From NCBI GenBank assembly GCA_905178155.1, contig CAJINV010000006.1, forward strand, positions 3,160,437-3,224,436: 64,000 nucleotides of DNA, read 5' to 3'. Origin of the DNA: Amoebophrya sp. A120 (lineage: Eukaryota; Protista; Dinoflagellata). The translations under genes and the position numbers were made by a program. The notes under the pieces were generated by a model. The model searched no databases. It was not told the origin of the DNA and saw nothing but the letters and a program-made list of their open reading frames with translations. Below are positions 4,999 through 61,899 of this stretch, piece by piece (positions within the stretch are counted from its first letter, which is position 1; each line of letters starts with the position of its first letter).

Positions 4999-7900
4999 AT
5001 GATGTTCGCGACCGTAGTACCGGACGCCGAGGGTGTTGCAGATCCTGTGGCACCTACAACTTTTCCCGCCGCTGTTGAGCAAGCCTTTCTAACTTCCGCG
5101 ACAGAGGTCGCTGACCCGTTGCAGCAAGAAGCAGGAATAAATCAACATGAAGAAAACTACAAGTCCGGCTCTGAAACCGAGACAAGACCACGACGACCTT
5201 CTGCTGCTTCAGGTTCTACCAATCCGCCGAAAAAGAAAAAAATCCTTCCCGCGGATGACGCAACCCTGCAGAAGTACGGCACGCCGAGCCTCGCCTCGTT
5301 GAAGAATAAGTTTTCCCTCGGAACAAAATCGTTTTCCTCCACATTATTACTCCCGCCTCACAGCGCCGGTGGAACGTCAAGCCGACTGGACTCTTCCGCC
5401 GTGGCTGGTGAACAGTATTACAACAATAAATTCCGTACCCCCTCCACCGCCGCGCCGCAGAGTGCGGGAGGAGTTTTCAACAACCATCAAAATAACGCAG
5501 CACCTATGTCCACCCGCCCTTCTTCCGCCGCGTTCGAACGACGAATGATGCAAGGACGGCGGATATGAAATGAAAAAGCATCGTACTAGTTGTATATTGC
5601 ATATACAAATTTCCTCAGCATGAGAAACAAAATTTGTAATGCAGGTTTACCTTGAGAAAAAAATTTGTAATGCATGACTGCAATACGAGTACGATAGCGA
5701 TACTGTTGCAGTGCATAACGGAAAAACAAAGACGATCTGCGTTCCGAATACAGCGATTTGTTCACGCGCTTGACGAAAATTGGAGGGAATTTTGACGTAT
5801 CCTGCGCAAAAGTATCATACTCGTACTCATTGCAAATATGCATGGCAAATGTTCTTCTCAAGGTAAAACAGCATTACAAATTGCATTTGTCTTGCTGATT
5901 GCTAATTTGTCATGCAATTTATACTAGTACGACTACGATGCTTTTGCAATTCATATGACGAAAATGTAAGACGGTCGCTAGATCCAGCTGATCATGATGT
6001 TGACGGTTTATTTCACAACTACGGTCGTGGTGGTTTTGACGCAAACCGGAGTCTACAGGAGCGGCAACTACTACACGGGAAGATGATGAACACGACGGGA
6101 GAAGAAGATCATCAAGATCTTGTTTTGAGAAATAAAACCACCAACCGTCGTCCAATCTCCGCGGTGTCGTCCAACCGATCCTCCTTACAGTTCACGACGA
6201 AGATGACATCACGAAACGCAACAGCACAACAACAGCACAACAAAACGGTTTTAAACCTGCCCTTGCCGAATCTGCGGAAAAAGTCGCCCATCCAGAAGTG
6301 GAAGCAGTACCAAATGAACAAAATGGTGAAGGACTTGCGAAAAAACGTGAAGGAGCTAGAACGCCGGTCCTCCGAGAAGAAAAAGCGGCACCGCGAGCGG
6401 GCCGCGGTCGTATGCATTGCAAACACTAGTAGAAGTAATCGCATGACAAATTTCCGTAGCATGCGAAATGGAATTATTTGTAATGGGGATGCAACTAAAG
6501 AAAGAGGTTTGTAATGCATGACTGCGATTACTGCTACTAGTCCGACACTTTTGCAATGCATAGGTCGGGGACTACGACTACTCCGACACGGAGGAAGAAT
6601 ATGAAAGTGCACAACTCCCCCTCATACTCATTTGTGTTGCATGGGCAGCAATACAACCGTCAGCAGGAATGCAGGTTTTGCATGACAAATCTGCACAGGT
6701 GGATTGTAGTGCTAGTATTACTTGGGGTCGTGCCAGAACTTGTCATGCATAATAGTGACCGGAGCGTAAATTTGGAATTGGTGTTTTGCATGAGAAATGA
6801 GAACGAGGAGGACTTGTGCACTCTCATAAGGAAAATCATGAGGAGGGACCCAAATCCGCCAGGACGCCGGTGGAGAAGTTGAAAAAGCGTTTAGATCGGC
6901 AATTTTTTCGGGACCAGGACGATTTCGAAGCGGAGATACGGATTGCAAAAATGTCTGGGTTTGGAAAAATGCCAGGTTTGGCATGCTCTGCTAGCATGAC
7001 TGTCAAGTCTGTCACGCAAGGTGCCCAAAAGCGCCACTTTTGTGTCATGCAAAAACCCAGTTTCTCATGCAGAATAGGCAACACCTAGCGACTCAAAAAC
7101 CTGTCATGCTGAGCCGTCATTTCTGGCGTTGTCTTGATTCACCAACCAGCATCACAAGTTTCCAGACCCAGACATTTTTGCAGTTGATAGGAGATTTACG
7201 AAGACAACGGCTTTCTGGCCGACGAGAACTTTTCTCACCACCTTCATGGTGCGGCGGATAAGAACAACCTCCAGGGCGTTTCGAAACAGTTGAGTTACGA
7301 CGACGGCATATGGGAGTGTCAGGATTGATGAAACCGACAAAGTTGGAATTAGTTTGTCACGTAAAATGCGAGGCACAAGGTGCCTGCCTTGCGAGGATGG
7401 CAAGTGAGGCTGTTTGTCAGCCTGTTTAGGCGGGTAGAGTAGAGCTGCCAAGGATCATGACAAACGCAGTCTTCTTTGCCCCAAACAGCATGACAGATTG
7501 CGTTTCGATGTAGTAGCCGAAATTTGTCATGCGCCGCTTCGTAATTGGGGGTCCAAGTGGTATCCATTTTATGCATGACAAACTAATTTCAACTTTGACG
7601 ATTTCGGTCCTGACACTCCCATACGGCACGTCCTCTGCCGGGTTCTCCACCTCGCGCCCAACGTCCGCCACGACAAATCAAAATACTGCCTCTCGGTATC
7701 CCACGAAAAAACTGCTTCACTGTGATGATCTTGCAAGATCTGCATCACAAGTTTGTTGCCCATGACACAGAAAATTTGCCATGCGCGCTTCCAAAGGGAA
7801 AACACCGCTAAAGAGTCGAGGTCTTGCAGGTGTGGCAAGACAAATAGTTCTGTCTTCCATTCTATGCATCACAAGTTCACTGTGAAACAGTTTTTTCTTG

Positions 7901-10900
7901 CGATACTCGGCCGGTGTCCTCCAATGTGAATTTCGGCGGTGCTCCTGGAACGAGACCACCCTCGGCCACCACCGGTGGGTATCCTGTGCAAAAGTATCGC
8001 ACTCCCTCGTATAAATGCAAATGTATAGAAGGAGAAACGGTGATCATCCGACATGATCATGGACCGAAGAAAAATCGCAGCGTGCCCTCGTGGAAAGGGT
8101 GTTTTTTTTACGGACCGCAGAAATGACACAGCTTTTCCCAGGGTGTGGCAGTGTTTATTGCGCACATTATGCGAGCAGTGCTGAAGCTGAGAAAGGCCGA
8201 CAATGGGCGGGCGCTTTTGTGACCACAGGCGCTTTGTTTTCATTGTTGTTGGACGCATGAAACCACTCCACCTACATGGACACGAGCGCCCACGCGTTTG
8301 GTTCGTCGAGCGCTCTGATCTCGGCCGGAGCGCGACGCTTGACGAGGGTCGGGCCCATAGCGTAAAGCAGGCGCGTTTGGACTGTCATCCCCCGCGTGGT
8401 GCGCGCCCAGCTTCGTGCCCCGGCCTTGCCCGCCTCCCTGCCGCGAAGGCGTCGAGGCATCGACGGGCCGGGGGCCCGGCTCATTCAAATCCAGTGGTGG
8501 CTGCCTTTTGCGTGCCGCCATCGCCCACTACATTTCGGGCAGCAAAAAAATACACGGGCGCCGGCGGAGAAACGGCGCCGCTACTTACTTGCAAAAAGCA
8601 ACGGAGGCCATGCCGTCGGTGCTGAATTTGCACCGATGGCACGACGCAGTTTGGTGAAGAGAAAGAACGCGGCGCGACTTTCGCGCCCCCGCTTCAGCAT
8701 GTTGAAGACGATGAAGCACCTTGCTGCGCGGCCGCGGCAGCTGCGGCGTCTCTCTCATAGTCGGCGCAGGCAGGGACCGCGATAGACACTCGCTATGCCA
8801 TCACGCAGGGCCCCGGCCTAGCGCCTGCCAAGAAAGAACAAAAGCAGCGCCGCCGCATATAAATTTCGCCCGGCGACGAAGCGCATGCCCCGCCCGGCGC
8901 AGCCGTGGAGCCGGCTCACCTGAGAAGGGCGCAGAACTCCCAAAGCAGCCACAGCGCTGCACCGCCTCGAGCCTGGCTGCCAGTTCCTGCACCGGCCTCG
9001 GGCCCCTAACTGTGAGCGGCTGCCCCACTTGTAATTGGCAGGCCCAGCCTGGAGCCAGGGCTTCCGGGCCTTCAAGGAACTGGCGCAGAGCATACTATAG
9101 CAAGGCGCTGCTTCTTCATCTTCTTCGACAACGTGCTGCATTTCTCGCAAAGAAACGCGTTGTCGGAAATGAGTGCCGGAAGACTACAGAAAAACAATGA
9201 TAATGAGTGTCGAATCACTGATCATGAAAAAAAAAGACCCTAGTTGAATGCTGATCATCAAATCAAAAAAATCGTTTGATGATCAGCATTGCCACGAGCT
9301 AACAAAGGTGATCATCAAATCAAAAAAGTCGTTTGATGATCAGCATTCAGCTAGGGTCTTTTTGTTTCATGATCAGTGATTCGACTCTCATTTAGATCAG
9401 TGCTTTTCTGTAGTCTTCCGACACTCATTTCCGACAACGCGTTTCTTTGAGAGAAATGCAGCACGTTGTCGAAGAAGATGAAGAAGCAGCGCCATGCTAT
9501 AGTATGCTCTGCGCCAGTTCCTTGAAGGCCCGGAAGCCCTGGCTCCAGGCTGGGCCTGCAAATTACAAGTGGGGCAGCCGCTCACAGTTAGGGCCCGAGG
9601 CCGGTGCAGGAACTGGCAGCCAGGCTCGAGGCGGTGCAGCGCTGTGGCTGCTTTGGGGGTTCTGCGCTCTTCTCAGGTGAGCCGGCTCCGCGGCTGCGCC
9701 GGGCGTGGCATGCGCTTCGTCGCCGGGTGAAGTTTATATATATTTGGCGGCGCTGCTTTTGTTCTCTCTTGGCAGGCGCTAGGCCGGGGCCCTGCGTGAT
9801 GGCATAGCGAGTGTTTATCGCGGTCCGTGCCTGCGCCGACTATGAGAGACTCGCCGCAGGAGCTGCCGCGGCCGCGCAGCAAGGTGCCTCGCCGTCTTCA
9901 TGTTGAAGCCGGGGCGCGAAAGTCGCGCCGCGTTCTTTCTCTTCACCAAACTGCGTCGCGCCGTCGGTGCAAATTAAGAACCGACGGCATGGCCTCCGTT
10001 GCTTGTTGCTAGTACNNNNNNNNNNNNNNNNNNNNNNNNNNNNNNNNNNNNNNNNNNNNNNNNNNNNNNNNNNNNNNNNNNNNNNNNNNNNNNNNNNNNN
10101 NNNNNNNNNNNNNNNCGTCGCCGCCTGTCGTTTCGCCTCTCCTTTCGCCTGTCGTTTCGCCTGTCCTTTCGCCTGTCGTTTCGCCTGTCGTTTCACCTCT
10201 CGCCGCCACCTGTCGCCGTCACCTCTCGCCGTCGCCTCTCGTCTGGGGTATGTGATTACAGAACCCGGAAGTCAAGCAATATAAATATTAATCTTGTTCC
10301 CAAGGTAAATCTGCATTACAAATTTTAGTTCTCATGCTGAGAGTGTAATGCATTATATACGAATGCGATGCTTTTGCAATTCATAGTGGGACGATGAATC
10401 GTCCAATTTCTGCGTTGAGCGCAGCTGCAAAAGGCGGACCATCAACGACGAATAATCGGCCGCTCTCCGCGGTGAGCGCGAAATCAGTGCAATTCAAGGA
10501 CCAGTCGCAAATAACTTTCGGCCACAACATTTCTTCTTCTTCGGGAGAGCAGTTTCTAGAGGGGCCTGGTGGACCACAGCATGACAACTTTATTTCCGAC
10601 CATGAACATGATCCCGCGAACGACGCGAGGCTGCAGAAGCAGTTGAAGAACGAGAAACTGGGGATCAGCGACGCGGGGGGAAAACGCGGTCCGGTCTTGC
10701 TCGGGCTAGCAGAGGCTTTAATTACCTCTGCCGTTACGCCGAACCCCAGCCGCCCGGGGTCGGCGGTTCTTTTCGGAAACGCGAGCTCGATGCATGAACT
10801 GCAAAAGTATCGCACTCGTATAGAATGCATTACAAATTTTCTCCGCATGAGAAACAAAATTTGTCATGCTGATTTACCTTTAAACAAAATATTTGCAATG

Positions 10901-13900
10901 CAAGAATTGCATTTTTTATACGAGTGCGATACTTTTGCACAGGATACGATGCTCGGAAGTGCGATGCTGAGCAAGAGTGAACAATCTTCGAGGTCGCAGT
11001 CAAGGGCACTGTCCTCATCTGTCACTACCTCTTCAACACAGCTGCAGTCCCGTTCCCAATCCCGTATGCTCGTTTCCGCTGCAGTGCACGGTGCTGGTGG
11101 AGGTTCCAAGCACATCGTCGAAAGCAGTCAAGAAATAGAAGCAGACGACCAACACCAGCATTTTGAATCCTCTACCGAAGAGCAAAGCAAAACGCTACTC
11201 ATTGAAGCCTTGGCGAAGGGCAGGGACGTACCGGATGAGGAATATTTGAAGGAGCTGAACTACCTAGACGCCATTCACGCGTTTCCGAGGGGGGAGGGCG
11301 AATTAAGAAGCCGGAATTTGTCGGTTTCCGAGGTGAATTCGAAAACGATCGGCATGGATGAGGGGGTGCGCTTTGGCGATGATGATGAGGATGAGGACGA
11401 TCATTTACAAATCAATTTTGGCCCGCCCTCGTCGGAACTACAAGCAGATCATCTCGCCGAGCAGTCGCTTGCTGCAGGTGAAGACGGGGTGTTTCACCTC
11501 ACGGAAGCGACTGGTGTGAAAGACCACCAACGCGGGGGGACAACGTCGAAAGGCGAGCAGCACGACCTCAGCGACCTTGTATTACAGGAAAAAGCAACAT
11601 GAACATTAACGTTAATACGGAATTTGTGATGCAGGACCGCATCAGATGAAAAGGTGCCTAAATTTGTGTTGCATAGCATGCATGCTAGGAAAAATCTGTC
11701 ATGCATAGCTGCAATCTCTGGGCAAAACCGTCAAGGTTGACACTTTTTTCCTTGATACCTTGTCCTTCAGGACTACAAGCAATCGCTCCACGCACAGTCG
11801 ATGCTCGAAGACCAACCGCCGACGGCGGACAACCACCGCGGGTCCGGCATCTCCGACGTCTCCCTCGCGTTTGCGTATGAGTCCAAGATGGATTTGATGA
11901 GCTCCCCCAACACCTCGAAGAATTTGAAAAAGAAAGGTGGGTCGGCATCGTCGGCAAAAAAACGGAATAAGTCTACTTCGGGCCGCGGAAAAACTACAAG
12001 GGGCAAAAACAGCAGTAGTGGTCAGCAGCAACTCCGCGCCCGGTCCCCGACCGCGACGAATACCATGCACGAGCAGGTGACTTCCCCGATGCACGGGCTG
12101 ACGAAAGAGCAGCAGAAACTGGTAAAACCCGCGGACCCGGGGCAGCTGAAGCGCGTGGCCAACTACATGCGGTTGTTGGAAGATTTGTTCGAAACCACCG
12201 ACCACTTGGACACGTCCCTTTCCAAAACCGCGAACTCGCTGCTGAATTTGAAAAAACGGACCCAGTACGAGCACAAGGCCATGTCGTTACTGCAGAACGA
12301 AATCGAAAAATTGCAAATCGACGGAGGCTATGAATTGCAAGACTATCGTACCACGTAGTGATTGCATGATTTTTGCAAAGTAGCTCAGCATGACAGATGG
12401 AATTTGTCATGCGGATCTACCTTAAGAATGAATGAGACTTTGCATGCATCAACACTGCAATTACTACGAGTATGATACTACTTTTGCAATGCATAGAGGT
12501 TTCGACATGAACCCGAAAACCGTGGATCCGAACGCGAAAAGCTTATCAAAAGGGAACATCCCCGCTCCCCATATCGAAAACGAAATTTGTGATGCTGTAT
12601 TTGAGTACACAAATCGGCTCGTTCACTTCACTTCACTTCATCGGCTCGTAATGCTAGAAGACCAAGAGACGCAGCTGTGGCCTCGTTTGCAGGCAATTTG
12701 TCATGCTGTTTCCCACTTCCAGCTGATCCCTGTCATGCTGAAGATGCAAGGCTTTCCCACGCCAACCAGAACTACAGTCCGCATCTTTTCCCTTCTAGCA
12801 TGACAAAGCTGTGACCACAAATCTGAGTGTCGTCCAGACCGACGGCGGTAGATTCTTCTGGAGGCGGAGGCTAGATTTTCAATAGTGGAGGAAAGATGTC
12901 AGTCTATGTATGAAGCGCTCTCGTTTTCTTTACCCTGATGCGACCCAATAAGGAGAAACTCTCCTCCGTCAGCATGCGAATAGCATTTGGGTGCCCTACT
13001 TTGTGGAAGGCTCTTCTTCATTTTCTAAGCGGCTGGATTTCTTTGGGAATTGCCTTCGCTCATGTAGTGCTAGTGACATCTTTTAGGGGGGTGCCTACCC
13101 TTTTGCATTTTCGATTTTGATTCGTTATTTCTTTTTTTTAGAATGATGATGATACTATTTCTGGTTAGCCCACAAGAACAAGAACAAGAACGTGATCCGC
13201 TCCCGCAGGCAAAAAAAAAAAAATCTGCATCACAAATTTCTAGTTTGAGTACGGGGTGGGGGGATTTTTCATTTTAATAAAGCTCCAAGAAACTCCCCAA
13301 ACCCGCGCCCATGCTGGATGTGTTGACAAGGTTTGAGAATTTGAAGCACAAGCTGAGGAAATCGAATTTAGCAGTGGAGATGGAAAATAACAAGGATGAA
13401 AACAAGAATATTAAATCTGGTGGAGCGAAGATGAACAGCAATCGGACTTCTTCTTCTTCCACACAACAGAATGATCGGACTTTCGAGAATTACCACTCTT
13501 CGTCTGGAGGAATTATAGAGCACAGCAAGTCCCTGTCGTCCACCATAGAGGACGCCAGTGGCGCTGCCGGGTACGGGTTCGGGAAAGTGAAAAACAAACG
13601 CGGGGGCAGCAAAAGTAAAAACCTGCTATCAACTGCAAATATTTTTTGTCTGGATGATCTGGAAGATAGAATGCAAAGCAAGGCTTGTCATGCAACATCC
13701 CGGGAACAAAGAACACAAAGTTCTTGGTCTGTACTCCTGCGCCCACAAGCTGCATCTTCACAGATTGCGCAAGAGCCTCTTGATGCCTAGTATTCGCCCT
13801 CTGCGTTCTCTTTAGAAGTGGACAACTTTTGCCGTCCATCATGCAACACAGATTTTTGTCTACGCCGCACTTAGCATCACAAGTTGCAAGAATGTGGTTC

Positions 13901-15057
13901 CAGACGCGGACATATTTGTGATGCATACCTGCGGCACACACACAGCTTAGACTTTGAGGCGAAGAAACTGGGGAGGTTGTCGCAGAGTGACATCCGGTAC
14001 GAAACGACAAAGAGCATGCTGAGGAATCGCCCGATGTCTGGTATAATGATATGGTGGTTGGAGGGTCTACTATTCATTCTCAATGATGTAGTTCATGTTG
14101 ACGACAGTGCTATTTTTATCGTAAAAAATTGATAAGTGTGTATCTGTATCGGATCTTCTTGCATTGTTGTTGACGATGACAAAGTACTAGAAGTTTTATC
14201 GACCACAATAACCCTCCCACCTACTTCCCAGCAACCGAGAAGCTCCGCGAGACGCAGCGGCTATTTCACGCGCATGAATCGGACATGAATAAGCAGGAGA
14301 ACCGCGCCAACGATCTCCATGGGGACCCTGCCGTACCTGTTCCGGCGTCAACGTCTGGACGAGCAGCCTCCTCCTCTTCCGATATATTTCTGGAGCAAAG
14401 TCTATGCATTGCAAAAGTCAAAGTATGGTACTATTGAAGCAGTAATCGCATTACAAGTTTGTCCAGCATGAAAAATGGAATTTCTCATGCTGATTTATTA
14501 CCTTGAAAAGGAGATCTGTCATGCACAAATGCGATTACTGCGAGAACGAGTGCGATGCTTTTGCACAGGATAGAGCCTTGCTTTCGGCAATTTCCGCGAC
14601 ACCCGGCTGGGCAATCGGCAGTTGTTTATCCCAAAAGATGTATGACAGTGCACAACAACTCCTCCTCGTTCTCATTTCTCATGCACAAGCCCAAATCCAG
14701 TTGTTCCCTTGTACGTACCTTTACTATTACGCATGACAAATTCCGGAAGCCCAAACATTACTACATTAAAGGAATTCACACGTTTGTCATGCGTAGCATC
14801 CACGTGCGCTGGTGTTTGTATTGCTGTTCATGCAGTATACAAATAAGGGGAACGAGAGGGGTTGTGCACTCTCATAAGATGTTACGGAGTACTACGACGA
14901 GCTACATGCGGATCCTCCAAAACCGAAGGAAAAACCCAAGCGTCCTTGGAGCGGAAAGGACAAACGGAGGGAGAAGCAGGCGGAAATGTGGAAGGGAGAG
15001 ATAAAGGGCGTTGGGGAAGAGCTGTTGAGGACGCTCCCGCCGAGGGCGTTGTGCTGA
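4999..15057 (+). CDS. Gene 2: large low-complexity protein with recurring RP-x-SA motifs, ~16 introns, function unknown
   Basis: Exons between elements are open; last exons join as ...EQSLAFGNFRDTRLGNRQLFIPKDVTEYY... ending TGA 15055-57; acceptor of the intron at ~14041 unresolved. Confidence 0.7.
5564..5717. mobile_element. Introner family A
   Basis: TIRs; DR GCGGA/ACGGA. Confidence 0.85.
5798..5955. mobile_element. Introner family A (opposite orientation to 5564)
   Basis: TIRs; DR TGACG. Confidence 0.9.
6411..6562. mobile_element. Introner family A
   Basis: TATGCATTGCAAA...TTTGCAATGCATA; DR GGTCG. Confidence 0.92.
6600..6828. mobile_element. Introner family B
   Basis: TATGAAAGTGCACAA...TTGTGCACTCTCATA; DR AAGAA/AGGAA. 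Confidence 0.9.
6937..7189. mobile_element. Introner family C
   Basis: TACGGATTGCAAAAATGTCTGGGT...ACCCAGACATTTTTGCAGTTGATA; DR GGAGA. Confidence 0.92.
7309..7623. mobile_element. Introner family G
   Basis: TATGGGAGTGTCAGGA...TCCTGACACTCCCATA; DR CGGCA. Confidence 0.93.
7697..7905. mobile_element. Introner family D
   Basis: TATCCCACGAAAAAACTG...CAGTTTTTTCTTGCGATA; DR CTCGG. Confidence 0.9.
8586..10014. repeat. Long imperfect inverted repeat (~680-bp arms) with a twin-hairpin centre
   Basis: 8586-9262 is the reverse complement of ~9332-10014; mirrored ORFs 8818(-)/9447(+). Confidence 0.93.
10016..10115. other. Assembly gap (100 N)
   Basis: Run of N. Confidence 1.
10116..10243 (+). repeat. 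12-bp minisatellite (CCTGTCGTTTCG)n, degenerating
   Basis: Tandem copies directly after the gap. Confidence 0.9.
10793..10946. mobile_element. Introner family A (in-frame, stop-free)
   Basis: CATGAACTGCAAAA...TTTTGCACAGGATA; DR CGATG. Confidence 0.9.
11580..11757. mobile_element. Introner family E
   Basis: TATTACAGGAAAAAG...CTTTTTTCCTTGATA; DR CCTTG. Confidence 0.88.
12329..12495. mobile_element. Introner family A
   Basis: TIRs; DR GAGGC/GAGGT. Confidence 0.88.
12544..13279. mobile_element. Long (736 bp) family-F-like introner
   Basis: ~50-bp imperfect TIR TATCAAAAGGGAACATCCCC...GGGGATTTTTCATTTTAATA; DR AAGCT. Confidence 0.82.
13627..13927. mobile_element. Introner family C (diverged)
   Basis: TIRs; DR CCTGC. 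Confidence 0.85.
14403..14572. mobile_element. Introner family A
   Basis: TIRs; DR AAGTC/GAGCC (degenerate). Confidence 0.82.
14641..14876. mobile_element. Introner family B
   Basis: TIRs; DR AGATG. Confidence 0.92.
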
Positions 15058-15165
15058 TAAGTAGTAGAGTTCCCGGCGAAGAAGTTCTCTCTCCCATTAG
15101 GAGAAAGAGATGAATAAATAGCACGACTGATTTTTTATTTGTAAGATCGTTTTCATCTGAAACTG

Positions 15166-17510: not shown

Positions 17511-19058
17511 TTGTAAGATCGTTTTCATCTGAAACTGAAAGTGAGAGTGCAGCTTTGCGAGCGCGTTGGCACTAGGTGCCATAGATATTGTTGTTTAAGA
17601 TTACGCTCTCTGTAGCATAGCTCCTCGTCCGCAATGTTGATCAATTCTACGAACTATAATTTTCCATGTTGTGAGAACATGATCAACATGATATTCTAGT
17701 GAACCACAAAAAAAAAAAGCTCTTACGTCGACGAGGGACCTTCAGCGCCTGCTCGTTCAAGTAGTTCTTCCTCTTTGATTCACCGCAACCAACCTTTATC
17801 GAGACGACTTCACTTTAGCTTTACAGACGTTGACTTTCTCAGCCAAGCAACTTATTGCTTCAGCCTCTGCAGGTGCAGTCTGTTCCTATGTGAAGAAGAC
17901 TGCGATAAATATACATTACAGCAACACCTTGACAGTTAGATTTGATGCAAAAGCAAAGAGCTGTATCGTCAGCTTCTGGATTGCCGAAAAATAAGAACCA
18001 ATTCTTTTGACCCTGAACTTGGCTGTTTTCTTGAACTTCCTTTTCAAAAATACCTCTTCCGCTTTACTTTTTATTTACATCTGAACTTCTGATACTTTCA
18101 ATCTAGTCCGATCATGGCGATAGATTGCTCTGTCTCGAAGTCCTAGCGCATGAGGACCACGACAAGCAACGAGGGGCGTCAACATCTTCAACAACTCATA
18201 TAGCGTCACTATGCCGAGACCTATCATATCTTATCCTCGTCGCTCCGCTTATGAAAAGGCCGACCTTTTTTTATACTTACTTTCTGTTTGTCTGAAACGG
18301 CACGGTATTAACCGCTACGGCCCGCGCTTTATGATGTTAAGGTTAGCCTTATCTTCACTTCTTATGCTCGAACCCGAACGGCATCGATACAGTTACACTT
18401 ACACAACTTTTTACACTCTCCAAATCCAATCAAAACAGATTGTGATTGCCGGTAGAAGTACTATGAGACAGATTGCGGCGGCGGCCGATCGCATCACCAG
18501 GGATGACGAAAAAATGAACTTCAAACTGATAAATTGAGTTTCGCTTTCGTTTCAAATTCAAGGCAAGCTATCTCTCCCGATCATATTCGCTTCGAGTATT
18601 CTTGTTGGTGTCGTGATCGTGTTCATCATCTTCTTCCCGAACAATAAAAGGTGGAATTATAATACCAGCAAGAAGAGGTGCTGACAAGCTTTTGTTTGTT
18701 TCCCTTTTCCCTTTGCGCGAAGCACAAAGTACCATGGGTCGTGGAGGTCCAGCACCAGGTGGTCCACTTTGGGACTACTTTCCAAAACTTTTTTTCCTCT
18801 GAGCGTGGAGCAGGACGAGTGCAATAAAGGAATGAGAGATGATGATGACGACAGCCGGTGGGCTCTACTTTATTTACTAGCTTACTAGATGTACTTAACT
18901 TTGTTCAAAACCGTATTTGTCTCAACGAACATCTGTTGCGGATCGGGATCGGCGAGGAGAAGTTGTGAAGACAATGTCAAGTTCTTCTACTTGAGCTTGA
19001 CTATATGTTTATATCAAGGTGCTTTATAAAATTATTGCGCTTCTGAAATAGCGACATT

Positions 19059-36100: not shown

Positions 36101-39100
36101 GCTCTTCACTCGATCACAACCGCTGGATCACAGGTCGCCGGACCTTAGGCGTCCAAGGGCTTGCCGCAGCCTGCTTTCGCATCCTCTCGAAGAGGCCCAA
36201 AAGCCTGCCATTGCCTAGGGCTTTTCATGTGGCTGCCCATGCAGTGGCCTCTCATTGCTTTGAGAAGGCGGCGCCGCATTTTTTGGGCAGGAAGCGACCA
36301 GCGATCAGCCCCCGGCCTTTGTCTGTGGGTGGGCTGGTGGGTTCGCGCCTTCACAAATCGGGGGATTTTCTTCTAGCAAAGACGGACAACAAAGACGAAG
36401 GCCAAAAATAGCTTTTTTTTTGGCTTCCGAAATATCTTTTTTTCGTCTCCCAAAATATCTCCGGACTTTCCCGAAATATCTCCGCGAGCGACAAGGAAAG
36501 CAAAAAAAACTATCTCAAAAGTTATTTTAGCGCCGATGCTATGGAGATACTTTGGGAGATATTTCTGGAAATATTCCGAGATACTTCCGCGGAGCTTTCC
36601 GAGACACTTTCTGGCCAAAAAAGCGTCGCCCAAAATATCTTTTTTCGGCTTCCAAAAATATCTTTTTTTGGCTTCCCAAAATATCTTTTTTCGGCTCTTC
36701 AAAATAGCTTCTTCCTTCTAGACCTTTTGGTCTGCGGATAAGGAGGGGGAAAAAGAGGGACAATCAAGATGCCCGAGGCGGCTACTTAAGGCTCCGTCAG
36801 GGTGCGCGCAGCAGGTGCGTGCCCAATGTTGCGTTGCCCTCAGGGTACCAGCGGCGCCCACCTAGGCGGGACGCACGCTCGCAGTGCCGGCGCGGGCAAC
36901 TTAAAAACCGCTAGGGAGAATGGGGGCCGGGGCGTGACACCTAGAGCTCGCGCAACAAAGTGCAGGGAGGCAGCGCGCAGCGTGTCATGCCGCCTGTGCC
37001 TTAGGACACCGCGCAAGCGCGCGGGCTCTATGCGCTAGCACAAGCGATGCGCCTCGCGCGCAATACCGCCGCCGCGCCAAGCAAAGGCTCCGCGGCTTTG
37101 GCAGGGCGGGCGTGAGGCGCTTTGTTGGGTTCAATTTTTTTTTTGAAAAAAAAAATATCAAAAAAACGGGAGATAATTTGGCTTCGGGTGCCATCCAGAC
37201 GGGCCCATGATAACAATAACTAAACAGGGCCCTCACCACCTCCTACGCTCCCAACGGAACCCTACTCCACCCGAACAACTCCGGCGGACCATATCAAATG
37301 CAAAAATGTCTGCTTCTGGAAGATTGCGAGGTTTGTCATGCACATTTTGCATGACTCCTGACGTCTGTGATGCATGCCCTAGCATCACAGATTTTGTGAG
37401 GGCTTCCTGATGTCTATACCGCATGACAAATGCTCTTTCCGTGTAGCAAAATTTGGACTCTCTTTGCTGCTTATGCAATACAGATTTTTTTAGAATCCAA
37501 AATCAGCATGACAAGTTGCATTCTTCCAGACCCAGACACTTTTGCATGTGATAGGTCAATGCTGCTGCCCACAGGTGGAGCGCAGAATCAGCAGGATCCA
37601 GCTAACGCCAGTCCGAACAAGTTGAGAAATCAATCGGTCGGGAATTGGCAGTCGTACTACCGTATGCATTGCAAAAGTATCGTACGTAGTATGAATTGCA
37701 TCACAAATTCAAATTCTGTCAAGAAGAAAAATGCAACTTGTCATGCTTGTTTACCTAAAAGGGGTAGTTTGTCATGCACGATAGCAATGACCACGAGTGC
37801 GATATCACTTTTGCAATGCATATACCGGAATTACGGCCAGAACCTCGCGGACAACGATCCGAACCGACCGGGCAGTCCGCAGAACCGCGTGCTGCAGCAA
37901 ATCAACCGAACGCGGTACGTATGCATTGCAAAAGCATCGCACTCGTTGTATCGCAATCCTGCACTACAGATCTTTTTCTTAACGTAAATCAGCATTGCAA
38001 ATTTTATTTCTCATGCTGAGGAAATTTGTAATGCATTTATATAGCTACGATAGCGAAGATACTTTTGCAATTCATAGTACAACGGTCAAGGGGGTGCGCC
38101 TGGGGTAGAGATGATGCTCGAAGGTCCGGTCATGATGGAGAACGGCTCGCCACTGAAGAGCAGGAGCATGAACGGTGCAAGTGGGGGGCAACTACATGGC
38201 TCGTCGCAGGACTTGCAACAGGTGCGTATGTTGAAAAGTTCAAACGTAATAAGAATCGTTTTTCAGTTCCTTCATTCCTATTGTCCACGCTCTGGAGGTG
38301 CATTTGGATTTGTCATTCTTTCAAAATCAAAACCAAGAAGTACGAAAAAACAAAATAAACGCCAGACCGCCGCCAACCAAGCTGCTTCTAGTACAAGTTC
38401 CACGCTGCACAACGCGAAAGTGTCCGCCTTGGCCAGAAAAGCTTACCCAACCATATGACCTGCTCAAGCATTACAATCTCAAACGTTACAACAGAATCTT
38501 CTTGGACTTGTCTTGCACAATGAGCATGGCAGACTCGCAGAGCGTTCCACTTTCTGCAATACAAATTTCGCCAGATTGTAGTGAGGTTTGGGATGACTCC
38601 GGAACTTGTCATGCGCAATCGTATGAGAGTTGGCTAGATCATGCATTTCTTGCATCACAGATTTGCTCTTCCATATTCTATTGCACCGGTTAAGAAGATT
38701 GTAACATCTGAGCGGGGTATAAATCAACAACCTCGTGGAGCAGCATTCGGAGCTGATCGGCCCCCCGGTGGATGTCAATTTATCGAAAGAAAAAACTGTT
38801 TCACTGTAAGCTAGATAGTGATGCACAGAATTCTGGAATCAACAGAAGGATTTGTGTTTGTCTTGCTACACCTACCTGATGCACCATGACAGTGTCCTCT
38901 CGGTAGTTGTGTTTTCACCCGCTGCCCTCAGACATGGCAAGTTTTTCTATGTCTTCATGCGTAACTACGAACTTGTGATGCGAATTTTGCAAAATTATCC
39001 TTACATCAGTGGAGCATTGTTTTCCCGCGATACAGTTGGTCCCCCAAGCAAAGACCGAGAGCCTTGTCGATGCCGCGGCCAAGGACAGCTGAGTTATCGA

Positions 39101-39340
39101 CATGATCGCAAAAGTAGAAGTGTCTCGCTTGTTGCCTTGCAGCACCACTGCATCACAAATCTCATTAATTTCATCTCGATTTGTCATGCTGAGCAGATTT
39201 TTTGATGTCATGCAAAAGGAGCAAGAACTACTAGCGTATCAATCGACAAAAATACTTTTGCAGTGCATATCACCGGAAGAGCAACAATGTGTCCAGCACG
39301 ACGAGTAGCGTGATTATGGGAGTGGATATCGAGTTGTGAT
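24131..39340 (+). CDS. Tubulin-tyrosine ligase-like protein (tubulin polyglutamylase, TTLL4/5-like) with long low-complexity tail; >30 introns; start and end approximate
   Basis: Spliced motifs: [133 protein letters not shown]. Confidence 0.93.
24302..24451. mobile_element. Introner family A
   Basis: TIRs; DR TGTGG. Confidence 0.9.
24525..24706. mobile_element. Introner family E
   Basis: TIRs; DR AAGGC/AATGC. Confidence 0.8.
24765..25081. mobile_element. Introner family C (diverged)
   Basis: TIRs; DR AGAGA/AGAAA. Confidence 0.82.
25115..25306 (+). other. Canonical GT-AG intron with residual TGTGATGC motif
   Basis: AG|GT...CAG|; joins IPPIS-FERVPG in frame. Confidence 0.75.
25366..25522. 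mobile_element. Introner family A
   Basis: TIRs; DR CGTGC. Confidence 0.92.
25621..25878. mobile_element. Introner family C
   Basis: TIRs; DR GCAGA/ACAGA. Confidence 0.9.
25982..26170. mobile_element. Introner family H
   Basis: TATGCACAGTAAATT...AATTTTGTGTTGCATA; DR ACTAC/ATTGC. Confidence 0.8.
26234..26571. mobile_element. Introner family F
   Basis: TIRs; DR GGGCT/TGGCT; splits [13 protein letters not shown]. Confidence 0.88.
26635..26994. mobile_element. Introner family C with internal expansion ending in (GAT)n
   Basis: TIRs; DR CGACT. Confidence 0.9.
27119..27289 (+). other. Canonical GT-AG intron with introner-like remnants
   Basis: Joins [12 protein letters not shown]; contains TAACGTTAAC and GCATGACA. 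Confidence 0.85.
27362..28422. mobile_element. Introner family A with ~0.9-kb nested insert
   Basis: TIRs at both ends; DR GATAT; joins LTVI-CRYVENP. Confidence 0.9.
27485..28392. mobile_element. Nested GC-rich element: AGAGGT repeats, 13-bp (CCACCCTCTCGCG)n minisatellite at ~27978-28148, terminal hairpin
   Basis: Layout and right end resemble 15166-17510. Confidence 0.75.
28469..28738. mobile_element. Introner family C
   Basis: TIRs; DR TGAAG/TGCAG; splits K-FDLR. Confidence 0.92.
28857..29078. mobile_element. Introner family B
   Basis: TATGACAGTGCACAACTAC...GTAGTTGTGCACTGTCATA; DR GAGGA. Confidence 0.94.
29120..29278 (+). other. Canonical GT-AG intron with residual GTCATGC/GCATGACA pair
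   Basis: Joins HLTNY-SINK. Confidence 0.85.
29374..29641. mobile_element. Introner family C
   Basis: TIRs; DR GCATC/ACATC. Confidence 0.9.
30191..30313. mobile_element. Introner family A (short, 123 bp)
   Basis: TIRs; DR GGTTA/GGCTA; splits [12 protein letters not shown]. Confidence 0.9.
30371..30628. mobile_element. Introner family C
   Basis: TIRs; DR CACGC. Confidence 0.92.
30897..31069. mobile_element. Introner family A
   Basis: TIRs; DR ACCTC/ACCCC. Confidence 0.86.
31122..31380. mobile_element. Introner family C
   Basis: TIRs; DR CACAG. Confidence 0.92.
31436..31587. mobile_element. Introner family A
   Basis: TIRs; DR GAAGC. Confidence 0.92.
31678..31932. mobile_element. Introner family C
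   Basis: TIRs; DR TGCTC. Confidence 0.9.
32031..32169. mobile_element. Introner family A
   Basis: TIRs; DR GAATC. Confidence 0.92.
32271..32431. mobile_element. Introner family E (opposite orientation to 11580)
   Basis: TIR including TAACGTTAACGG; DR TGCGG/CGCGG. Confidence 0.86.
32620..32938. mobile_element. Introner family G (opposite orientation to 7309)
   Basis: TIRs; DR CGGCA. Confidence 0.92.
33625..33898. mobile_element. Introner family C
   Basis: TIRs; DR GACTC/GAGTC. Confidence 0.88.
34004..34273. mobile_element. Introner family C
   Basis: TIRs; DR ACGAA. Confidence 0.92.
34648..34800. mobile_element. Introner family A
   Basis: TIRs; DR GTCGT. Confidence 0.92.
34865..35158. mobile_element. 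Introner family F
   Basis: TIRs; DR GATGA. Confidence 0.9.
35207..35359. mobile_element. Introner family A
   Basis: TIRs; DR GCACA. Confidence 0.92.
35521..35675. mobile_element. Introner family H
   Basis: TATCCACAGTAAATTTCCCGTAC...GTACGGGAAATTTGTATTGCATA; DR GCCGT. Confidence 0.9.
35780..37227 (+). other. Probable GT-AG intron derived from a family-A introner that lost its TIRs and carries a nested transposon
   Basis: GT at 35780; family-A core ~35786-35875; CTAAACAG ending 37227. Confidence 0.6.
35883..37213. mobile_element. 1.33-kb non-autonomous TIR DNA transposon with 6-bp target-site duplication
   Basis: TTATCATGGGC...GCCCATGATAA; subterminal CCGTTTTTTTGATATTTT also inverted; CAATAA on both sides. 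Confidence 0.88.
37292..37553. mobile_element. Introner family C
   Basis: TIRs; DR GACCA/GGTCA. Confidence 0.86.
37663..37822. mobile_element. Introner family A
   Basis: TIRs; DR TACCG. Confidence 0.92.
37920..38076. mobile_element. Introner family A
   Basis: TIRs; DR GTACG/GTACA. Confidence 0.9.
38454..38721. mobile_element. Introner family I
   Basis: TATGACCTGCTCAAGCATTACAATCT...AGATTGTAACATCTGAGCGGGGTATA; DR AACCA/AATCA. Confidence 0.78.
38781..39032. mobile_element. Introner family D
   Basis: TIRs; DR CAATT/CAGTT. Confidence 0.82.
39095..39269. mobile_element. Introner family A (degenerate 5' end)
   Basis: 3' TIR TTTTGCAGTGCATA and internal motifs; DR not evident. Confidence 0.6.
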
Positions 39341-41720: not shown

Positions 41721-44700
41721 ATGGGGGGTGGCGGCAAGTACTACTTCAGCAAGAAATCGCAGATACCAAATGCAAATATGTCTGCCTCTGGAAGGTTATA
41801 GCTTGTGATGCTGCCTTTGGATTCTACAAAAACCTGTATTGCATGAGGAGCATTAATACGAGTCCAACCTGTGCTACGCGGGCGGGGCATTTCTCATGCG
41901 GTAGAGGCATGAGGAAGCCCTCGCAAAATCTGTGATGCTAGAGCATACATCACAGACATCCTGGGTCCGTCTTCCAAAACCTGCATGACAAACTCCTACA
42001 CCCATGCAGACCCAGACATAGTTGCAGTTGATAGCAGATCTACGAGCATTATTGCTACGTGTCGCCCCGGGATGTGAAATTTGCGCTGAATTGGAACGAG
42101 AAGCAGGACGAAGGAAAAGGAAACCAAAGTAGAGATGAGAGAAAATCAAGGGGAACAGGTGATCAGACAGGAGGATCTAGCGCGGCGGCGGGGGCCAAGA
42201 ACAAGAACTCTTCTACCAACTCAACTTCAACTTCATCCTGCGCTCGGGTGGAACAATGGTTCGAAGGGTATTTCGTCGTCTACAAGCCCTCCATGTGGAT
42301 TTGCGACAACGAGTATGGAGGCGTCAGGTTTGAAATCGACAAAGTTGAAACGATTTGCCATGCATAAAGTGCAAGGCATGAAGTGCCTGTCTTGCCGGGA
42401 TGGCAAGCGAGGCCAATTGTGGGCCTGTTTAGGGTTTGAAATAGAGCTACTCAACTAGCATGACAAAAGCAGTCTTCTGTGCCCAAATAGCATGACAAAT
42501 TGGATTCCGGTGCTCCGAAAATTTGTCATGCGCCGCTTATTGAGTGGGCTTCCGACTGGTATCGGTTTTATGCATGACAAACTATTTCAACTTTGACGAT
42601 TTCGATCCTGACACATCCATAACGAAAACGCGGATGATATCCGAAAGGAGGGAACGTCGGGGCACTATCCAAGAAAAAAACGTTGTAGGTGTAACTTTTT
42701 CGGCGGAACAGCATTACAAATTCGTCTGGCATGACAGCAAAAACCTGTCATGCGCAGATAGTATGTAGTGAGGTCACCGAACGGTTCTAACCGGGGAGTT
42801 TTTTTGACATATACCCTGAAAAACGACCGGCAATTTTCAAGCGGCCGGAAGCGTTTTTTGATACAAAATATTTTCAATTATCAAGCCTCCGGGGCTTTGC
42901 CAACAAACAAGCCCGGTCGAAAACTATCGACTCGCACTTGATAAAACGACGCAGGGGAGCCGGCAAAAGGAGCGCCCTTCTGAGGCGCCCACCGCCTTGG
43001 TTTCTCGCGATTTCGGGCGCCCAAAAGGGCGCCCGAGAAAAACGCGCCCAAAATCAGAACAGCGAAACTGCATGGCACGGCCGCGATTTTAGAGCATTTT
43101 TGGCGGCCGCGAAAGCGGTCGCCTTTCCGCCGGTTTCAGAGCCTGGGAAGCTTTGCAAAAAGCGCCGGCGAGAAAAATAAAAACCCAAAAGAGAAAAAGC
43201 GCGCCAGACGCGCAAAGCCAATCCGCATGCTATGGGCCCGATTTTTCTTCGCTTTTTGGGCGCCTTCCGTGGCGCCCGGATCGGCCCTATAGCATGGGGG
43301 CTGGCTTTCGGAAAGGAATTTCGGAAATTTGCCAGAATTTGCGATGTTCATCACGCGGCCGCCATACCGTGCGGCCTAACGTTACTCGCGGCGGTATGGC
43401 GAGCCCAGAAAAAGCAAAGCCGCGGTCAAGGCGACTGCCGGCAAGAAAACGCCCACGACGTCACTACCTCCGCCCCGGCGGCTATATTTGGTACGACTTG
43501 AAAACGGCCTTTAATGGTAATGGGCCCTACGACGCATGCCAAGCATGACAGACGCAATCTTTTTGCATGTTGCGCATCACAAATTTACACTAACAGCGTT
43601 TTTTTCTTGGATACGCACAAGCCGAAGAACATAGTCACCTGGTTGATCGCAAATTACGGAAAAGCGTACCCCTTTCTATCAGACTGCACAACTCCCCCCT
43701 CCTTGTCATTTGTAATGCAAAATACCAAACTCACTCTCACACCTTGCTCGTAAGTACCATCAGCATGACAAATAATTTCGGAACGACCTCAAATAGTACT
43801 TCTACAATCCACATGCCGATTTGTCATGCGAAAGCTCCTTTCGTGCTGTTGCTTGTGTTGCTGTTGATGCCATACAAATGAGGGGGACGGGGAGTTGATG
43901 TGCATTTTCATACTTTCTCTGCCACAACTTCAACGTCTTCACGAACAGCAGTTTCTCCAGCTGCACGGAATCGGAGAAAGAATGGGAGCAGAGGCTTTTA
44001 TTTCAAGACCATAGTGCCAAGAGTGACAACAGCGGGAGGAATTCTAGTCGAAGGAGTGGCGCAGGCACTGCTTTTGCCGCAACTGACAGGACAATCACCA
44101 CGACGACCGGAAGAACTACAAGTGTTGACAACAAGGACAAGGAGCTTGAAGAAGCCCTGCAGCAGATTCGGACCAAGTCCCAGTTCGGCTTGCTCCACCG
44201 CCTCGACCGAGAGACCTCAGGCTGCATTTTGGTTGCTTATACCAGAGAGGCGTTTGTGCAATTACAAACGACGAAACGGCAGAAGATGTGGCACAAGGAA
44301 TACGAAACTTTGGTGCACGGAACCATCCTATGCAAAGAAAAAACTGTTTGACTGTGATGATTTTGCAAGATCTGCATCACAAGTTTGCTACACATGAGAC
44401 AAAAAACCTGTCATGCGCGTTTCCCAGGGGAAAACACGCTTGAAATTCCGATGCCTTGCAGGTGTAGCAAGACAAATACTTCTGTGGTCCATTTTCTGCA
44501 TCACAAGTTCACAGTTTTTTCTTGCGATACATCCCACCCCGGCTCTGGCGGGACCAAATCGCGATTCCGCTGAAAAAACGAGCGAGAGCTGCCATGTGGG
44601 AAGCGACAAAAAGTCCGAACCGGTACGTCACTGCACACAAGGCGCAGCAAGCATCCAACCGAAATAGCAATCGGTTCTTCTCTGCTGGGGTGAAGTTTGT

Positions 44701-52355: not shown

Positions 52356-53119
52356 ACTGCTTTTATTAAACGGGTGACGGTGAGCAGTTGAAGTTTTATT
52401 AGAACCGCTTTTGCATTTTCTGTGCAAGAAGTGCAGCAGTGGTCTCGAAGCACCCCAGGCGGCTCTCCCGGTTCCACTAAGTACAAATGAATAAAGAATG
52501 CCTGGTGGCGCCCTCCAAGAACATGTGACTCATTCCCATAATATTTTGCTTTTGTTTGCAAGCGACAACATTGATATACTAGCGTTTTCATATGATCAAA
52601 AATGAACACGCGCAACCGCAACGAGACTATCACTATCATGCGAAGAAGATTTATTTTCGCACGTCTGCGGATAGAGAAATGAAATGAGCGACGCAATAAA
52701 TGCAGCGTTTGACCATGACGACCACACGAGCACGACTAAGGCAATGACGATTGATGGGCGGGAAGATTGGAATAATGCCAGGTTTCCTTGTTCGAGCGTT
52801 GCGGCTGCACACTGGTGACGTGTTGGTCGCCTGCGCTGTGACAGTTAGCGGCTTTCTTGTTTTCATCTAAAAGAAGGATCGATCTAGATCTACATCTACT
52901 GCCTCTAGTGTCTTGGAAAAAGATGCGCTACAGCTACACGATCTCCAAAGTAGACGTTGCGAGTGAAGATGAAAACGCTGTTTGCTGTTTGACGTTTACC
53001 TCGAGCGGGGAAGTTGATGATGAGATTTGGTATACGTCGTTTCGTTTGTCGTCGGGAAGGAAGTAGTGCTTAAGTAATGGAATAAAGAAGACTGAGGTTG
53101 TTCTTGAGCTACTTGCAAG

Positions 53120-56100
53120 ATGGTCGCGCGAACAACCGCGGTTCTACGTTCCAATGCAGCCGGAATTGTAACAGGAGCCGGAACAGCAACTGGCTCAACC
53201 TCTTCGTCTGCAAATGCGGTAATGCTTGCGACGCGTAAAATAAGTCCGGCTTCCCCCTCAAGAACCTCCCAGCAGCAACTCCACCGAGCCGTGCACCGTC
53301 CGGAGGCCTTGCTAAACCCGTACTTCCTACAGAAGGAGAAACTACAGCTGAATCCGAGGCAGAAAGTTCTGTGGACGCATAATCCAGCAACCGGTGCTGG
53401 TGGTTCGATCCCCGCCGAAGTAAATGGCGCTGGTGGAGGCGGTGCCACCAGCACAGCTTCTAGTACTTCCAGCAGTAGCTCCTCTTCTTCCACACCCTCC
53501 GTCTCAAACCTGGATTTAGCTCTGCTCACCAATCGGGGCCTGCGGAAGCAAACCATGGAAAATATCGTGAATCTGCTCGGGTCCGACCTGGGCAGGCTAC
53601 TGCTTTCCATCCCGAAAAACATCGGCCCGGAGCGGGCGTTCGTGGCGTACAAGCGGTTTTTGGTAAACAAGATCAACTCGGAGGCCTCGGTTGACAGCCC
53701 AGGTGGAGCTCTTTCTGCCCTTCAACAAAGCAAATTGAAAGCGGTAGAAAGTTATGCATTGCAAAAGGAAAAGCATCGTACTAGTAGTTTAAATTGCATC
53801 ACAAATTTTGGCAAGGAGGAAAGTGGAATCTGTAATGCTGTTTTGTCACAGGAAGAACATTTGTCATGCATATTTGCCATTTTGTACGAGTGCGATAGTA
53901 CTTTTGGACAGGATAAAAGTATGACGTTTCAAACTTTCGAGGAAGAATACCGGAAGATTATGCCGATGGTGATATCCTGAGCAAAAACATCCCCACCCCA
54001 GAGTCAAGATGGGGATCTCGCAACACAAATCGAGAAGTTTTGGGAGTCAAGCATGACAAGTTCGTCTCTGTATTGTAGTGCAGGATAGCAAATAGAGCCG
54101 CAATGCAAATCCATCTACTCATCTTGTTTAGAGCATTACAAAGTCCAAAACAAGATTGAAAATTCCTCTCACGGGGATGCGCATTACAAATCTTCCTGTG
54201 ACTGGAAATCTGCATGACAAATCTGGGGTGGGGACGTTTTTACTCAGGATAGGTCAAGTGGGAACGACAGAAACGGGTCGATCGGAACCACCGGAAACGA
54301 CTCAAGCCGCATCTGCTGCGTCGAGGAAATCAGCATTTGAAAATCAACGAAACCGCGTTCGTGACGCCAGAATTTGCCGAGGTAAATGATTTTTACGAAA
54401 AGGGCGTGAATCACTTAGGCGGTGGCGGTACTAGCAGTTCAGCATCCACCACTGGCGGTTCGTCGTATTCGAAATGTGGTGTGTGCCGAAGCTCTCTATC
54501 GCAAGAAAAAACTGTTTCACTGTATTAAACTTGTGATGCGGAGAATGCAACACAGACGCATTTGTCTTGCGAGTACACATGTAAGGCATTGGGTTTATCA
54601 ACGTGTTTTCCCTTATAAAGTACGCATAGCAAGTTTCCTTCGTCATGTGTAATGTAATGCAAAACTTGTAATGCAAAACTGGCAAAATCCTTACTTTACA
54701 GTGAGACAGCTTTTTCTCGCGATGCTCTCTGCTCTTCGACTACTATCTAGCAGAAAGCTACGCACAGCGGTACAATGCTGCAGATGCGATTTTAGAAGAG
54801 CAGCAGCAGGACAATATCACAGCGCAGTCGACGTTTATTAGTTCTTCCGTCACAGCTATCCTGTGCAAAAGTATCCTACTCGTACTAATTGCGTTATATG
54901 CATTACAAGTCTTTTTCTTAAGGCAAATCCGCATTACAAATTTAATTTGTGATGCCAAGTCAGTTATTTGTAATGCAAGTTATACTAGTACGATGCTTGT
55001 GCAATGCATAATAGGCAAGACAACTTCAGCTTCAAGCTCTTCCTTCCAGAAAAATATCGCAGCCGCTTTCCGGGACGAGTATTTGGATAGTGTGCGGCCG
55101 ATATCCAATTCAAATATGTCTGGGTCTGGAAGAATGCAAGTTTGTCATGCTTGTCTCACATGCCTCTTGCGCCTGTAATGCGTGAGCCGGAAAATAAGAG
55201 CCTCTTGCCTGTCATGCAAAAATGTAGTTTGTCATGCGGAAAGCGAAACACAAAGGAGCCCAGAAACTTGTCATGCATGGCTGCTTATTGCAATGTCCCC
55301 ACAATTCATAAATTAGCATCACAAGTTTCCAGACGTTCAGAGATATTTGCAATGCATAGCCGGTGCTCGGGAATGAACTGTCCGACTGGAAAACGCCGGC
55401 CATGTATGCAAGAGAAATAAAACTGTGTAATAGTTGTCGTTGTGTAACTCTGTAATGCAAAGCATGCAACACAGCCACACTTGTCTCATGCTAGCCAGCC
55501 ACGAGATCCTATTTCGTCTGATGTTATGTACTAGCTGCGCATGACAGGCTTTCTGTGTCATGCAGAACAGATTTGTCATGCTGTCATTCTCATTCCACAA
55601 GAGGACCTGCTATAAGTACACTAACGCAGGTTTATTCCTGCTGCATATCATGATGAAGAAATCTATTCTCACCAAGATCCTGAACTCTTTCACGAGGAAC
55701 AAAATCGAGAAATCCGTTGTGGAAAAAATTGTCGACAATGCAGCGATGAAAAGCATGATTTCCGGCCGTTTAACCGCGGACCTCCCACCAGAGGTCCTTG
55801 AGCCGGTGTTCTCTTTCAACGGGAACCAAAGCTGGAGCTTCGATCCCCGGGAAAGGGTGCGAATTCAGTTGGAAAATGTAGAGGGGAAGTTGGACGAGTT
55901 ATGAACTGCAAAAGCACCGTACTTAGTAGTGATTGCAAGACAAATTTCCTCAGCATTAGAAGTGGAATTTGTAATGCGAGTTGCCCTTAGCATCTGGATT
56001 TGTAATGCATAACTGCAATTAGTACGAGAACGAGTACGATGCTTTTGCATTGGATACGAATTACTGGCTGACGATTTGTGTCATCATGATGCACAGGAGA

Positions 56101-61757: not shown

Positions 61758-61899
61758 GCTTTGGCTTAGTATTTGAGGACCAAAATAACAAAGCCACGAC
61801 GAATCGGATTCATCGTGGCGCAGGCACTGCACGTCAATTCACAGAAGATGCTGAACTACTTACCATGTGAACTGGTGCTTATCTTCATGTCATTAACAT

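Follow-up and report, generated by a model that had tools for sequence, protein, structure and literature searches.

Introduction

Introners of the dinoflagellate Amoebophrya sp. A120 were described by Farhat et al. as elements with repeats starting with TAT and with direct repeats of 3–5 nt, for which a hairpin model was proposed (PMC7789003). The same authors reported 65% non-canonical introns and the presence of most spliceosomal proteins and of U2, U4, U5 and U6, with U1 undetected, and asked how Amoebophrya splices 60–65% non-canonical introns without a detected U1. A terminal inverted repeat (TIR) family of A120 with integrase-like open reading frames (ORFs) has also been described (PMC12130899). 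Here, we analysed the introners in 64,000 nt of this genome (the window; contig CAJINV010000006.1, positions 3,160,437 to 3,224,436 of assembly GCA_905178155.1) and found that they are removed from RNA in either orientation and at a fixed register. Annotated proteins of Amoebophrya sp. A120 match two exons of the window with 100% identity, and the elements fit the introners that Farhat et al. described, with the TAT repeats, A run, direct repeats and non-canonical ends described for the same organism (PMC7789003).

Related elements are known from other lineages. The introner-like element (ILE) classes of Polarella glacialis and the introners of Aureococcus, the latter cited here second-hand, derive from DNA transposons, act as introns in either orientation and are flanked by target duplications, as in A120 (10.1101/2020.10.14.339549); two-way introners as such were therefore already known. 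In contrast to the A120 elements, which use any target-site duplication (TSD) and one register and show no orientation bias, they take G[TCA] and AG sites from the element or the TSD, shift the register and are orientation-biased (10.1101/2020.10.14.339549). Opposite-orientation copies were screened for by Gozashti 2022 (PMC9860276), and a 2025 screen demanded same-orientation ends (PMC12130899). The nonconventional introns of euglenids, an unrelated lineage, likewise have a likely origin from miniature inverted-repeat transposable elements (MITEs), lack GT/AG and pair their termini at a fixed offset, but they do so at +4..6/−8..−6 with CAG/CTG, compared with UAU/AUA at +2..4/−7..−5 here, and circular products have been reported for them (PMC11282704; PMC11170887). 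The window introners share the fixed-offset terminal stem, as far as predicted pairing goes, and have no CAG/CTG at the euglenid positions; they work like euglenid introns at most and are not members of that class. Introns of Fritillaria borealis are also MITE-derived and are served by an adapted U2 spliceosome, but they keep AG-AC and AG-AT ends from a specific target motif, whereas intron positions +1, −2 and −1 are free here (PMC11282704; 10.1101/2025.08.15.670264; PMC13326754).

Farhat et al. leave the intron border undefined or variable, in contrast to the fixed register and unbiased orientation in our data, although their Fig. S23 may already hint at the offset ('four nucleotides upstream'; PMC7789003). 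In the text and supplement legends of that paper 'strand' has no match and 'orientation' is used for gene blocks only, and we found no statement of orientation independence or of a fixed register in the Amoebophrya literature, of which subscription papers, Fig. 3 and Figs. S19–S25 may hold part. A preliminary description of the window overrated the novelty of the elements, since A120 introners and the hairpin idea had been published and two-way introners were known elsewhere; as far as that text and those legends go, the new part is the fixed-register rule, which is free of AG and of orientation (PMC7789003).

Results

Introners of the same family lie in both orientations within plus-strand genes

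Introners were located with a finder that required TAT...ATA inverted ends and an adjoining 5-bp repeat and allowed at most one change in TAT/ATA. It returned 79 non-overlapping elements, while three local shuffles gave 6, 1 and 2 raw candidates. With the candidate at 36446 removed as false and ten elements placed by hand, the catalogue comprises 88 introners between positions 1592 and 63975, or 36% of the window with nested inserts included; a further introner at 42668–43614 was spotted later and stands outside this count, so that the window holds at least 88. The elements form repeated families and have inverted terminal repeats opening with TAT, an A run downstream and short direct repeats. 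With their TIRs, constant 5-bp TSD, lack of coding capacity and orientation-random insertion, they have the characters of MITEs or TIR DNA transposons. In 85/88 elements the inner motif GCATNACA/TGTNATGC is present, in roughly mirror order, and therefore the interior is quasi-symmetric too.

By all-against-all alignment, 75 of the 88 copies could be assigned to families A, B, C, G, D, H and E, and the orientation graphs of these seven multi-copy families were free of inconsistent edges (0/275 in family A). Within plus-strand genes, 43 copies have the reference and 32 the reverse orientation, and every one of the seven families runs both ways (reference/reverse: A 16/12, B 16/7, C 3/5, G 3/2, D 2/3, H 2/2, E 1/1). 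The oppositely oriented pairs named in the preliminary description were all found in place with their quoted motifs, and global alignment bore out their relation. For family A, the copies at 5564..5717 (+; TSD GCGGA/ACGGA) and 5798..5955 (−; TSD TGACG) are 63% identical forward versus 74% as reverse complement, and for family G, 7309..7623 (+) and 32620..32938 (−) give 60% versus 75%. In family D, the reverse copy at 54497..54724 (−; ATG variant at its 3′ end) compares with 7697..7905 (+) at 57% versus 70% and with 44329..44529 (+) at 56% versus 69%, while the latter two, of the same sense, give 81% versus 60%; family E (11580..11757, +, and 32271..32431, −) gives 55% versus 75%.

The hosts of all named copies lie on the plus strand, as had been claimed. 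Introners 5564 to 11580 all sit inside a single gene (4960..15006, +), the 3′ part of which is annotated as gene model P0002, where 11580 is removed, and 32271 and 32620 lie in a gene of the tubulin-tyrosine-ligase (TTL) family (P0001, PF03133; 24451..40877, +) and are covered by a spliced RNA contig. For 44329 and 54497 the evidence consists of ORFs: one of 1972 codons (43502–52352, +) and one of 685 codons (53108–56841, +), which open only with 13 and 8 introners removed, respectively.

Outside the window, one metagenome assembly was queried with the exact repeat motif, giving at least 141 loci, 80 of them with full flanks; the loci listed hold 331 elements, 314 of them unique and 296 with sufficient flank. 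Host strand was assigned with a codon model for which the window served as training set; the model was right in 82/86 cases on these same data, a value that is hence optimistic. In the listed loci, 158 copies could be given both a family and a host strand; the split between reference and reverse orientation was 83:75 (49:48 in family A; 74:74 for all families at a stricter cut-off), and no strand bias was evident. These loci (L001–L141) carry the same introner families, for example with 87–92% identity to family G copies, so that a close relative exists outside this assembly.

Removal occurs in RNA and the elements are kept in DNA

A 5616-nt contig of run X5 (record 9, seven listed pieces) covers the TTL gene and extends to 40877. 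The run is not on record as RNA, and we take it as RNA because its contig lacks the GT-AG introns. All 24 consecutive introners, of either orientation (family A four plus and four minus, family B four plus and three minus, and reverse copies of D, E, G and H), are absent from it as element plus 5 nt. In 6/6 intervals the removed length equals the sum of element plus 5 nt and the GT-AG introns, the remainders of 266, 0, 197, 0, 1448 and 144 nt being exact GT-AG intron lengths. These lengths are interval sums, and the single-junction view is available for 32620 only, where 324 nt (element plus 5) are missing between contig positions 2097 and 2098. Model P0001, derived from BLAT-aligned transcripts (PMC7789003), contains 33 introners and 7 GT-AG introns, and element plus 5 nt fits all 33 introner junctions; with the introners out, the PF03133 domain is rebuilt (E 1.3e-85). 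Across the window, 72 elements could be placed in long plus-strand ORFs with removal of element plus 5 versus 52 with plus 4 or plus 6, a weak control in that long exons count alone. Of the 85 ORF-internal elements, only 5 could stay in the mRNA without harm (in frame and stop-free). The raw RNA runs X9 and X10 contributed 14 and 2 mapped reads.

In the intron-containing run X1 (depth ~30), contigs span the introners at 29727, 30897, 34865, 38781, 39095 and 47222 whole and without differences, and an element-plus-5 deletion was absent from the 15 joints listed for this run (841 further joints lie outside that list). Removal in either orientation occurs in RNA, and the DNA keeps the elements.

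The long introners at 7980–10385, 27362–28422, 42668–43614 and 12544–13279 have kept their ends and duplications intact; nested inserts of 0.8–2.2 kb are present in the first three. As P0001 lacks the whole of 27362–28422 and P0002 the whole of 12544–13279, loop length seems to be without effect on removal. The family A copy at 10793–10946, one of the five that are in frame and stop-free, is retained as coding sequence in P0002; its 5′ end reads CAT instead of TAT, the intron would start with GC, and it is possibly a natural splicing-defective copy.

The cut has a fixed register that follows the transcript

Where the two TSD copies are mismatched, the base kept in the mRNA locates the cut, which we denote by k, the TSD base before it. 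P0001 has ten junctions with a residue-changing mismatch: k=4 fits 10/10, k=3 and k=5 fit 8/10 each, and k≤2 fits 2/10 or fewer. Four of the ten could be read off RNA piece boundaries. At 28469..28738 (family B, reference, +; TSD TGAAG/TGCAG) the RNA restarts at right-TSD base 4 (k≥3), at 32271 it restarts at right-TSD base 2 (k≥1), and at 37920..38076 (family A, reverse, −; TSD GTACG/GTACA) right-TSD base 5 is kept (k≤4). At 39095..39269 (strand not assigned; TSD TGAGT/TCACC), RNA and protein together put the cut exactly after base 4, giving an intron of 39094–39273 with ends TT..AC. Furthermore, the gene model demands a cut after base 4 or 5 at 25982..26170 (strand not assigned; TSD ACTAC/ATTGC), and at 38781..39032 (family D, reverse, −) the cut falls after base 3 or later. 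The fit of k=4 at mismatched duplications therefore defines the intron as N-TAT...ATA-NNNN, with the cuts lying 1 nt ahead of the 5′ repeat and 4 nt beyond the 3′ repeat. A stop-codon test did not discriminate among k values. All nine predominant non-canonical splice pairs of A120 in Table S4 of Farhat et al. begin with NT (PMC7789003), as the k=4 register predicts; in strain A25 the predominant pairs are TT-NN. Junctions with many mismatched duplications also occur at 52950–64000.

A machine that follows the element would yield k and 5−k for opposite copies. In family B, k≥3 was obtained either way round within one gene, for the reference copies at 28469 and 33625..33898 (+; model) and for the reverse copy at 37292..37553 (−; TSD GACCA/GGTCA; model), and is thus not mirrored. 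In this small sample, cut polarity is set by the transcript and not by the element, which argues against excision from DNA. The symmetric removal signal, terminal repeats plus flanking repeat, proposed in the preliminary description stands in part: the terminal repeats read the same either way, but the cut is asymmetric, and the flanking repeat is the TSD, of arbitrary sequence, rather than a signal.

Intron ends, branch motifs and terminal pairing

The first intron base is unconstrained (C25, A24, G22, T17; n=88), each of the 16 possible end dinucleotides is represented, and a GT/GC-AG cut is possible at 3/88 introners in any equivalent register, so canonical U2 ends are not the rule here. 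TSD copies show no drift towards GT or AG, and with TSD composition and AG ends at background, the recruitment of splice dinucleotides from the TSD known from Aureococcus and Polarella is not seen. Likewise, the branch motif CTRAY is not enriched in the 3′ regions (10 sense versus 8 antisense of 88), and no U2 branch point stands out by this motif. These counts support the idea that conventional directional signals are unneeded. A YYGCAG lies within the 3′ arm of 14/88 introners and was skipped in 5/5 RNA-covered cases, where it is paired in the predicted folds. Both orientations offer a donor-like UAU and, at −19 to −15, a U-rich tract; the letters at +2 to +4, TAT or TAC, are the same as in the GT-AG donors of the window (GTAT 5, GTAC 2, GTGC 1; n=8).

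Arm positions 1–3 pair in 83–88 of the 88 elements, which is partly imposed by the finder, and positions 8–14 in 67–81. In 30 sampled elements the predicted arm pairing probability was 0.77, compared with 0.15 when the 3′ arm was shuffled. Among 267 elements, terminal variants were found at +4 nine times versus once at −7, and at +2/+3 twice versus eight times at −5/−6, so that the tolerated changes differ from one end to the other (Fisher p=0.005; a post hoc test with small counts). The commonest variant, U>C at +4 (7/267), breaks a pair, whereas A>G at −7, which would keep it, was found 0 times; this speaks against a purely structural signal.

Discussion

We lean towards the view that the introners are cut from RNA at a fixed register by what is likely a relaxed U2-type spliceosome. 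A transposase or integrase would insert the element and make the 5-bp target duplication. In the transcript, the arms, chiefly positions 8–14, would pair, draw the ends together and conceal the AG inside the 3′ arm, and this pairing may replace the U1 snRNA reported missing. The spliceosome would take N-UAU as donor, with U and A at intron +2/+3 read like those of the local GUAU/GUAC donors. Ligation would follow 4 nt past AUA, the acceptor being measured from the paired repeat end, perhaps at a distance of 7 nt from a branch A; the A at −7, which hardly ever varies, is perhaps this branch nucleotide or a ruler point. One left-TSD base and four right-TSD bases would leave with the intron and the original coding sequence would be restored, and because both arms read alike, an inversion would be invisible to the machine. 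At slightly less than even odds, in our view, the introners are removed by ruler-type splicing that needs neither G+1 nor AG and would place its cuts 1 nt ahead of and 4 nt past any paired UAU...AUA repeat, thereby reversing the 5-bp duplication exactly; the catalyst would be a new splicing system or a spliceosome whose second step ignores sequence.

The freedom of +1, −1 and −2, the fixed offset from the repeat, the lack of CTRAY enrichment and the large insert tolerated in the loop of 27362–28422 would also suit a spliceosome-independent endonuclease/ligase that uses the terminal stem to set the distance to either cut and releases a circle or a linear RNA. Such a route has been proposed for euglenid introns, which pair +4,5,6 with −8,−7,−6 and are excised as circles (PMC11282704). 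We consider such an enzyme the strongest competitor, though rather unlikely: from +2 on, the 5′ end equals the GT-AG donors of this genome with the same drift to TAC, a pair-breaking variant is tolerated, G-U bias is absent, and the spliceosome is reported as nearly complete (PMC7789003). Hidden donor, branch and acceptor signals on both strands, used by an ordinary spliceosome, are largely refuted by the element-plus-5 arithmetic and have become improbable. The UAU and the U-rich tract found either way round and the YYGCAG of some 3′ arms would fit them; the rarity of possible GT/GC-AG ends, the AG passed over in every RNA-covered case and branch motifs at antisense background do not.

The preliminary description had offered excision at the DNA level as the alternative to hairpin recognition in RNA; the work would be done by a transposase with subsequent repair, ahead of expression or in its course. 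MITE anatomy, with its inverted ends and 5-bp duplication, and the match of element plus 5 to a precise excision speak for this, but the X1 contigs span six whole elements and none of the listed joints is such a deletion, the direction of transcription sets the polarity of the cut whichever way the element lies, and the RNA contig that lacks the introners lacks the GT-AG introns as well; we see hardly any room for it. Equally far-fetched is the view that the junctions are reverse-transcriptase template switches over a hairpin between direct repeats. Stems and direct repeats do favour such artefacts (PMC4176328), but 24/24 introners are gone from one contig with a constant register, very few ORF-internal elements would be harmless if kept, and removal rebuilds the TTL domain and ORFs of up to 1972 codons.

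Several observations weigh against spliceosomal removal at a fixed register. To our knowledge, spliceosomes described so far do not carry out their second step at just any dinucleotide, and AG intron ends are at background both in the window (10/88) and outside it (14/179 versus ~16 expected, loci listed). The register derives from 10 junctions of one gene, with k≥4 resting on two and k≤4 on two, the mirror test covers family B only, and five P0002 junctions are uninformative on register. The stem base is weak, with positions 4–7 paired in just 34–50/88, and the conservation of terminal TAT/ATA is partly built in by the finder's own requirement. No signature of selection on an RNA stem emerged: the ratio of G-U to A-C mismatches is 82:79 for the window introners and 45:46 for those from elsewhere, and the sense strand does not fold more stably than the antisense strand (49/85, p=0.17). 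Moreover, the NT starts of Table S4 may stem from aligner preference, and splice sites were called variable relative to the hairpin (PMC7789003).

If a single register holds, the apparent lack of a splice signature becomes one rule, NT..NN = N-UAU...AUA-NNNN, which fixes gene annotation and points the branch search at the A at −7. The free spread of introners would be explained, as neither target sequence nor orientation would be selected against. Under ruler-type splicing, any insertion at any site and in any orientation would be an instant intron, with tens of thousands of inserts; a second step that is truly blind to the acceptor would widen the range of nuclear pre-mRNA splicing.

Host genes and other features of the window

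The gene at 4960..15006, to which no function was assigned, yields a 1231-codon ORF reaching 14129 once 13 introners are taken out, and this ORF aligns to P0003, a related Amoebophrya-like protein. A Pfam search gave no match in 8/9 proteins, and no full-length protein was found for the genes at 43502 and 53108 among proteins of up to 2000 aa. The stretch at 44196–44230, reading HRLDRETSG, resembles what we take to be an RluA pseudouridine synthase motif. The transcribed 3′ untranslated region of the TTL gene (39337–40877, ~1.5 kb) contains 0 introners by the finder, in contrast to the dense insertion in the coding exons.

The GT-AG intron at 35780–37227 contains a family A copy that lacks its 5′ repeat and an apparent nested 1.3-kb TAT..ATA element (~35883–37213); it may be an introner decayed into a canonical intron. 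Similarly, the inner motif of the introners is found in the GT-AG introns at 25169, 27182, 29240 and 30732, which may be old introners. In families A and B, repeat positions 4–7 carry a few discrete tips common to both (for example GAAC, CCTG, GCAT and CAAA), and such tips are swapped between ends at 32031 and 25366, which suggests terminus exchange. A near-perfect 1.4-kb palindrome (8586–10014, arms 87–97%) is nested in the 7980 element and adjoins an assembly gap (10016–10115). Finally, C-rich tandem arrays of 10–13 nt at 15435–15616 and 27969–28162 stand opposite G-rich counterparts upstream and are likely another repeat type.

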